A program made the position numbers and the translations under genes. From Eledone cirrhosa (taxonomy: Eukaryota): a stretch of DNA of 64,000 nucleotides. Below the pieces are notes generated by a model. It was not told the DNA's origin, did not search any database, and saw only the letters and a program-made list of their open reading frames with translations. The stretch covers positions 241,242,001 to 241,306,000 of the forward strand of contig OZ024743.1 of the NCBI GenBank assembly GCA_964016885.1, given 5' to 3'. Numbering within the stretch: position 1 is the stretch's first letter; the number at the start of each line of letters is the position of its first letter. Of the stretch, positions 24,578 to 24,674 are shown piece after piece.

Positions 24578-24633
24578 GCATGCTACTGTACGTCTGTATA
24601 CATATATGTATGTACGTATACATACATACTTAC

Positions 24634-24636
<3 letters not shown>
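18458..24636 (+). repeat. Tandem array of ~502-bp hammerhead-containing unit (retrozyme-like); first unit inverted
   Basis: 11 plus-strand HHR cores at 19295, 19797, 20303, 20805, 21307, 21813, 22315, 22817, 23319, 23817 and 24320 (spacing 498-506). The inverted unit 18458-~18975 has its HHR at 18796-18840. Confidence 0.95.
19288..19332 (+). ncRNA. Minimal type I hammerhead ribozyme (representative of every ~500-bp unit)
   Basis: aacggtg-CTGATGA-t-agct-aaca-agct-t-GAAA-CTAG-TA-catcgtt: 7-bp stem I, 4-bp stem II, palindromic ACTAGT stem III, GUA site. Confidence 0.85.

Positions 24637-24674
<38 letters not shown>

Follow-up and report, generated by a model that had tools for sequence, protein, structure and literature searches.

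The insertion footprint described here is that already published for Penelope-like elements (PLEs), and is neither a new rule nor a new kind of element. Work on endonuclease-bearing PLEs has described 5′ truncation, partial tandems and an adjacent inverted copy that is itself 5′-truncated, along with a tail of 30–40 bp that often occurs at one end only, a bias toward (TA)n, and hammerheads in the repeated part of the element (PMC8557442). Earlier work reported a 31-bp tail at one inverted pLTR, as well as duplications of 8–10 bp in rotifer elements (Arkhipova et al. 2013, PMC3846280). In the passages of both papers that deal with these features, the tandem and inverted structures and the "tail" are called unexplained, and integration is described as still undefined (PMC3846280, PMC8557442).

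Animal retrozymes are a second system of relevance. One proposal has PLE enzymes mobilizing them from circular RNA (Cervera and de la Pena 2020, PMC7229834), and a recent preprint ties retrozymes to the pLTRs of PLEs by distribution and phylogeny (Li, Clavereau and Pollet 2026, bioRxiv 10.64898/2026.07.22.740005). Fixed insertion ends, tails and inverted arms are not described in the searched text of PMC7229834 or 10.64898/2026.07.22.740005, whose supplements may hold insertion-site tables. How animal retrozymes re-enter DNA has so far only been proposed.

A third system is the twin priming of LINE-1, a model said to go back to Ostertag and Kazazian in 2001, in which two cDNAs are reportedly primed from both target DNA ends on one RNA. 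The first is said to start at the poly(A) and the second at an arbitrary internal site, and joining by microhomology reportedly leaves the 5′ part inverted.

The repeat considered here occurs in a window of 64,000 nt from Eledone cirrhosa (assembly GCA_964016885.1, contig OZ024743.1, positions 241,242,001 to 241,306,000 of the forward strand), "the window" meaning this whole stretch. The window is dense in retroelements and long (TA)n tracts. The unit of the repeat is 502 nt long and non-coding, and is numbered from q1 at window position 24137 (AGTAAGTGCC...) to q502 at 24638 (...CATACTTACATTTA). Tandem units range from 487 to 506 nt, and no ORF of 150 aa or more is found at 18459–24638. Like the metazoan non-LTR retrozymes, the repeat is non-coding, arranged head to tail, a few hundred bp long and without LTR, PBS or PPT; those retrozymes, as described, measure 150–450 bp, and the 502-nt unit lies above that range.

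Three arrays of the repeat occur in the window, and all of them stop at the same place in the unit, ...CATACTTA(CATTTA) followed by (TA)n. The right arm of array 1 (18976..24638, + strand) holds about 11 units of 498–506 nt, begins near q364 and ends as ...catacttacattta against (TA)n at 24638, or q502, a site designated X (...CATACTTACATTTA). To its left lies an inverted arm of about one unit (18459..18975, − strand), whose outer 3′ end is a second site, Y (...TTTTTTTCAATTTAT), adjoined by (TA)n at 18417–18458; the two arms show no differences over 412 compared positions. Array 2 belongs to an older subfamily. Its right arm (44813..45369, + strand), about 77% identical to the unit, ends at X (...CATACTTA before TG(TA)n, with ...catactta followed by tgtatata) at 45369, or about q496, and its inverted left arm (about 44695..44812, − strand) has its outer end at Y (...TTTTTTCCGTTT before (AT)n). 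Array 3 (61692..63098, + strand) consists of just one arm, with 2.9 units that each measure 487 nt; its 5′ end is near q52 (AACTTATCG...), i.e., at Y, and its 3′ end is X (...CATACTTACACTTA), running as ...catacttacactta into (TA)n at 63098, or about q498–502. Were ends uniform over 502 positions, three of them would fall within about 7 nt by chance with a probability of about (7/502)^2 = 2e-4. A shared 3′ stop of the three arrays in (TA)n had been the starting claim of a sequence-only reading of this DNA, and it is borne out; that reading had missed the head-to-head arms, the pairing of X with Y, and the inverted left arms of arrays 1 and 2 that end at Y.

Between X and Y lies a 58-nt tail segment (q1–58; an internal copy is at 24137..24194, + strand). 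It contains the 3′ half of a small hairpin, TACTTA-CATT-TAAGTA, in whose loop X is located, and an 11-bp A/U hairpin (q20–51). The unit also carries an internal (TA)n of 40–60 nt, about 60–110 nt upstream of X. When the young unit was compared with five old copies, the conservation profile was flat (71–98% per 20 nt), and neither the tail nor the ribozyme region stood out.

Other features lie in and around the arrays. Array 3 is embedded in a satellite with a period of about 30 nt (window 61317–61690 and 63094–63343) that is built on the palindrome TAAGTATATATACTTA, which resembles two tiny X/Y-type ends joined head to head. The satellite was considered as a genome-wide trace of aborted insertions, and this was rejected; the 24-mer has 42 genomic copies, 13 of them in the window, against 22 for a control, and is a local feature. 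At 13219–13242 (− strand), an exact CATACTTACA stands alone, apart from the three arrays, and may represent an X-type fragment of very short length. A tRNA match (Rfam, 41.2 bits) at 43943–44013 (− strand), some 700 nt ahead of array 2, may mark either a tRNA gene or a tRNA-derived repeat.

At least 497 matches to the unit are spread across many chromosomes of the 3.0-Gb genome. A first, end-blind sample of 33 insertions was drawn from these, consisting of 27 array loci from the best-scoring list, the three window arrays, and three insertions in the fetched DNA, with flanks mapped using the unit in four circular phases. It comprised 23 two-armed insertions with both ends resolved, seven single-armed insertions, and three that were unresolved because they were cut off or interrupted. 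Among 53 resolved 3′ ends, 52 lay at X (q491–503) or Y (q53–58), where 3.8% would be expected if ends were uniform, and the sole off-site end was at q228 (L059). The modes are ...CATACTTACAT and ...CATTTA for X, and ...CAACTTAT for Y. Aligning the 3′ boundaries of the sampled genomic copies, which the sequence-only reading had put forward as its check, accordingly gives two sites and not a random scatter. The exact Y end signature has 803 genomic matches against 10 for the reversed control, and the exact X end signature has 3608 against 1138 for its control. An apparent excess of minus-strand hits in the list of unit matches proved to be an artefact, as both exact end signatures occur in equal counts on the two strands.

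Most insertions consist of two arms joined head to head, each meeting (TA)n with its outward-facing 3′ end, as in arrays 1 and 2. In the first sample, 23 of the 30 resolved insertions had this form, all with outward 3′ ends. Across all samples, 47 of 51 two-armed insertions combine an X end with a Y end, the two sites lying 58 nt apart. The first sample contributes 21 such cases among 23 two-armed insertions; of the 22 in which both ends were X or Y, 21 were mixed, for which P is about 5e-6 if mixed and unmixed pairs are taken as equally likely. Further samples were seeded from each end. Twenty X-signature places yielded 15 in the 502-nt family (along with four of another small element and one of a related 469-nt family), and these 15 held 16 insertions, namely 13 X/Y, one X/X, one single-armed, and one too complex to read. 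Twenty Y-seeded places gave 13 Y/X, no Y/Y, one with another end, five single-armed, and one cut off, so the X/Y fraction of resolved two-armed insertions is 13 of 14 from either side. As for the exceptions, the arms of the Y/Y case (L036) are 5.6% apart, and because of this distance it probably represents two separate events; the X/X case (L097) is an old insertion whose arms differ by 6.7%. The longer arm is associated with neither type of end. Within an insertion, the median difference between the arms is 0.45% (28 pairs, 10 of which have no differences in 412 positions); for arms taken from different insertions it is 2.9%.

Several other repeats are related to this family or share parts of its arrangement. 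An unrelated, non-coding element of about 150 nt (L085:6952–7038, L088:975–1130, and L125–L136) is also two-armed and lies in (TA)n, and it terminates in the same letters as X (...ACATAYTTACAT), which there form the long, or tail, end. A universal end motif ...ACATAYTTACAT serving as a recognition signal was considered and rejected, since the ends of the PLE in the window and of a 319-nt family beside it, both discussed below, are different. At L090:245–2651, a related repeat with a 469-nt period has only 62 nt in common with the unit (q165–226, the ribozyme region, at about 76% identity). Finally, L045:8073–8520 holds a two-armed element of about 450 bp, a relative of the 319-nt family, whose insertion point coincides exactly with X in a 502-nt unit.

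In the last unit of array 1, a manual parse predicts a type I hammerhead at 24313..24357 (+ strand; Rfam HH9). The parse, which applies to each unit, gives a helix I of AACGGUG/CAUCGUU (7 bp), a CUGAUGA core, a helix II of AGCU-AACA-AGCU (4 bp) followed by GAAAC, and, at the position of helix III, the 6-nt palindrome ACUAGU without a loop. Because that helix lacks a loop, the motif could fold only when two copies pair. Double hammerheads are known from the newt and from avocado viroid. Amphibian retrozymes have hammerheads described as dimer-dependent and PLEs have minimal ones, with a helix III that is weak or absent (PMC7229834). The predicted motif resembles the amphibian retrozyme hammerheads in that its weak helix III would be offset by the pairing of two ribozyme copies, and it differs from these, from the minimal PLE hammerheads, and from metazoan retrozymes as described in that helix III is predicted to be a loop-less palindrome. 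The best Rfam match, Hammerhead_HH9, scores 18.5 bits against a gathering score of 52, and at gathering thresholds the whole window returned the tRNA alone and no hammerhead. Neither RNAfold nor cofold gave the double hammerhead for the ribozyme segment; as that structure is not nested, this outcome carries no weight for or against it. A lookup of RNA runs for the 502-nt unit listed none. Across 90 nt that include the motif, 131 extracted copies share one sequence, and the remaining 45 represent 28 variants, of which almost all are a single substitution away. The old subfamily departs from the unit at position 7 of the core, which is a free position, within loop 2, and by a swap of U.G for G.U in helix I. 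Paired cells amount to 92% on 11 distinct sequences against 21–45% when the partners are slid, and one helix I pair is seen as GU, UG and AU. This pattern lends weak but consistent support to the predicted hammerhead.

Cleavage is predicted after GUA, between 24350 and 24351 (q214 and q215), which places X 288 nt downstream; the sequence-only reading had put the distance at about 285 nt. That reading had also held that 5′ ends differ while 3′ ends are fixed, and that the fixed end is not the cleaved RNA end. Both points are upheld. The 5′ ends of 104 arms (a few counted twice in overlapping neighbour loci) are scattered across the unit, with none within 10 nt of the predicted cut (q205–225). 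An excess at q301–400 lies at the border of the TA/TG-rich part, for which the mapping lacks precision. Arm lengths vary as well; many insertions are shorter than one unit, both arms of an insertion are often several units long, and arms reach 17 or more whole units. Considering the fixed 3′ ends, the variable 5′ ends, the absence of ends at the cut and the arms of many units, the template would have been multimeric or circular and not a cut monomer. The suggestion of a circular or multimeric template made by the sequence-only reading is thus compatible with the arms, which do not distinguish a circle from a multimer.

The alternative that survives best, although we consider it unlikely, is that insertions were originally about one unit long and that the arrays grew later by unequal crossing-over, in which case neither a multimeric nor a circular template would be needed. 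Satellites do grow by unequal crossing-over, many insertions are indeed shorter than one unit, and units within an array vary in length through (TA)n slippage. However, units within an array are 98–100% alike, and it is common for both arms, not just one, to span several units. Moreover, the arms begin at arbitrary positions of the unit and traverse X and Y internally, and any arm that exceeds 288 nt as counted from X, or 346 nt as counted from Y, cannot do without a template that runs across the ribozyme cut. These observations count against later growth.

A further question is what places the two starts. Nearly all 3′ junctions adjoin TA-rich (TA)n DNA, and in the single-armed copies L099 and L115 the 5′ side can adjoin unique DNA while the 3′ side is TA-rich. 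Most target duplications are unreadable inside pure (TA)n, but four can be read. That of L089 is 26–28 nt of GA(TA)n, those of L120 and L123 are about 24–28 nt with an internal CG or G, and that of L066 is about 10 nt. The unit's own microsatellite can serve as a target as well, since at L080:4009–4014 one two-armed insertion of the family has received a second one within its internal (TA)n (q441). One could suppose, as a somewhat less probable alternative than later growth, that base pairing alone sets the start sites, with a TA-repeat DNA end annealing to A/U stretches of the RNA and any reverse transcriptase extending it. Both sites do end in A/U-rich letters (ACAU/UUUA at X and CUUAU at Y), and at most junctions one to three letters are ambiguous between the end and the (TA)n flank. 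Yet on that supposition the internal (TA)n should be the main start, and it almost never is; among young copies, only L105 ends there, in its TG/TA-rich part, while another such end is explained by the nested insertion at L080. The Y arm of L089 directly adjoins a flank whose first letter is G (CAACTTA against GATATA), so a start at Y does not require a TA end that pairs, and some other junctions carry extra letters (CC, CACAC or C). Nor would pairing alone predict the joint use of X and Y. The scarcity of ends in the internal (TA)n, together with the G junction of L089, indicates that base pairing to TA is not what fixes the start. Priming at TA microsatellites, as the sequence-only reading had it, therefore stands with regard to the target, and falls with regard to how the start is chosen.

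The centres of the insertions bear on a self-priming model that has been proposed for PLEs, in which a single template folds back so that one priming event yields both arms (PMC3846280). This would suit the prevalence of head-to-head arms, and one insertion, L074, has a symmetric centre with a perfect 32-nt snap-back. It is the only such case, though, and a palindromic junction was found in just one of the 36 two-armed junctions identified by script. Folding back should give matching unit positions to either side of the centre, whereas those observed differ (q277 against q43, q120 against q261, and q249 against q326, for example) and the arms overlap at most centres by 1–7 nt. Since fold-back would also leave the two different outer ends unexplained, self-priming is an improbable source of these arms.

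Least probable of all is a DNA-level element with no RNA step, be it of foldback type, Helitron-like and rolling-circle, or a product of palindromic amplification at hairpins, for although fixed outer ends around a variable centre recall foldback elements, X lies in a hairpin loop and (TA)n is also a Helitron target, the termini are not one sequence but are offset by 58 nt and differ (X against Y) in 47 of 51 cases, the unit is non-coding with neither a transposase nor a Rep ORF, the 5′ sides are randomly truncated and can adjoin unique DNA, and a nearby element bearing a reverse transcriptase, the window PLE, has the same layout. A Helitron proper was rejected on the ends of the repeat, which are ...ACAT(TTA) and ...ACTTAT in place of TC...CTRR, and on the variable 5′ starts of the repeat; a foldback transposon was rejected because identical inverted termini would be expected.

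The PLE in question is a probable, degenerate element at 36041..39554 (− strand), with stops in its ORFs and both ends in (TA)n. It contains a reverse-transcriptase-like ORF (37299–38627, − strand; RVT_1 at 18.7 against a curated cut-off of 29.6) and a GIY-YIG-like ORF (36712–37311, − strand; GIY-YIG at 18.4 against a curated cut-off of 22.6). Upstream of it, at 39025–39554, lies an inverted, 5′-truncated copy that stops at ...GCATAACA, and the direct copy extends 57 nt beyond the end of the inverted one, as a tail at 36041–36097, into (TA)n. In the Atlas clusters nearest to this PLE, RVT_1 occurs in 30–48% of members. Over 156 aa, its reverse-transcriptase ORF shows 31% identity to a sequence at L147 that lies upstream, on the same strand, of a GIY-YIG match above the cut-off. 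By eye, a minimal hammerhead-like motif (CUGAAGAG...GAAAG) can be made out within the PLE at about 36300–36255. Next to the PLE's (TA)n, at 35360–36039, is the different, two-armed family of 319 nt, one outer end of which extends 26 nt past the other. Further reverse-transcriptase ORFs of the window lie at 25974–27341 (− strand), 56351–57538 (− strand), 15983–16528 (+ strand) and 60345–61286 (− strand), their matches comprising RVT_1 at 114.6 bits (alongside a PHD finger), at 37 bits and at 31 bits, as well as zf-RVT.

A search for an autonomous partner began from 10597 GIY-YIG candidates genome-wide at first look, 150 of which were scored, all above the family cut-off. Thirty of these loci were compared with the unit, and none had sequence in common with it, save for an old insertion beside L161. 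Alignment of the unit with the 3′ end of the window PLE gave chance-level matches alone. When the ORFs of the window PLE were run against the 30 loci by tblastn, matches were obtained in 3, 2 and 1 of the 30. Unlike what defines a PLE derivative, then, the 502-nt repeat has no 3′ sequence in common with an autonomous element among those compared, namely the window PLE and the 30 GIY-YIG loci.

PLE insertions as described (Arkhipova et al. 2013, PMC3846280; Craig et al. 2021, PMC8557442) share with the 502-nt repeat a fixed 3′ end and variable 5′ truncation, head-to-tail partial tandems with an inverted, 5′-truncated copy placed head to head, a short tail at one end only, a target that is AT-rich or (TA)n, target duplications that vary in length, and a hammerhead motif in the repeated part, which for the 502-nt repeat is a predicted one. 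The differences are that the 502-nt repeat has no ORF, so that up to 17 or more units per arm take the place of one ORF flanked by pLTRs; that its tail is 58 nt in comparison to the published 30–40 or 31 bp; and that its informative duplications are about 24–28 nt in comparison to the 8–10 bp of rotifer PLEs.

Considering all of the above, the 502-nt repeat is likely a non-LTR retrozyme moved by PLE enzymes, and DNA synthesis most likely starts at defined sites other than the ribozyme-cut end of the RNA. The defined internal start that the sequence-only reading had inferred thus holds in that the sites are fixed, and needs amending in that there are two of them, used as a pair. On balance, we favor an origin of these insertions through copying by a PLE reverse transcriptase and endonuclease, with the starts at X and Y both stemming from one staggered cut and both drawing on one multimeric or circular RNA. 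The endonuclease would nick both strands of a (TA)n tract, about 10–28 nt apart, and each 3′-OH would then prime a cDNA on one common RNA by target-primed reverse transcription. Of the two DNA ends at the staggered cut, one would begin synthesis at X and the other at Y, with the start being placed by an RNA–protein complex and not by base pairing. Both cDNAs could run for anything from less than one unit to many units, a range that itself would call for a circle or a multimer as the template, and their free ends would be joined by microhomology. The hammerhead might serve to provide unit-length RNA for circularization, with the insertion ends set otherwise. Compared with the twin priming of LINE-1, both starts are fixed here, at a distance of 58 nt, and multimers are possible in both arms.

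A more specific version of this scheme is conceivable, and we offer it only tentatively. X and Y might be the two start points of a single enzyme complex seated on the 58 nt of RNA that lie between them, with a single RNA, probably circular, being copied from both ends of the cut of about 10–28 nt and the complex itself placing both starts.

For a field in which the return of animal retrozymes to DNA is a matter of proposals, the 502-nt family provides many young, clean insertions in which rules can be counted. The countable rules are two fixed starts 58 nt apart, their paired use, one template per insertion, and no run-off at the ribozyme cut. The family supports the published idea that retrozymes borrow the enzymes of PLEs, and X, Y and the tail hairpins represent concrete sites to mutate. 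Should the more specific version be true, the "tail" of PLEs would be the gap between two coupled priming sites, and could be read from thousands of natural insertions.
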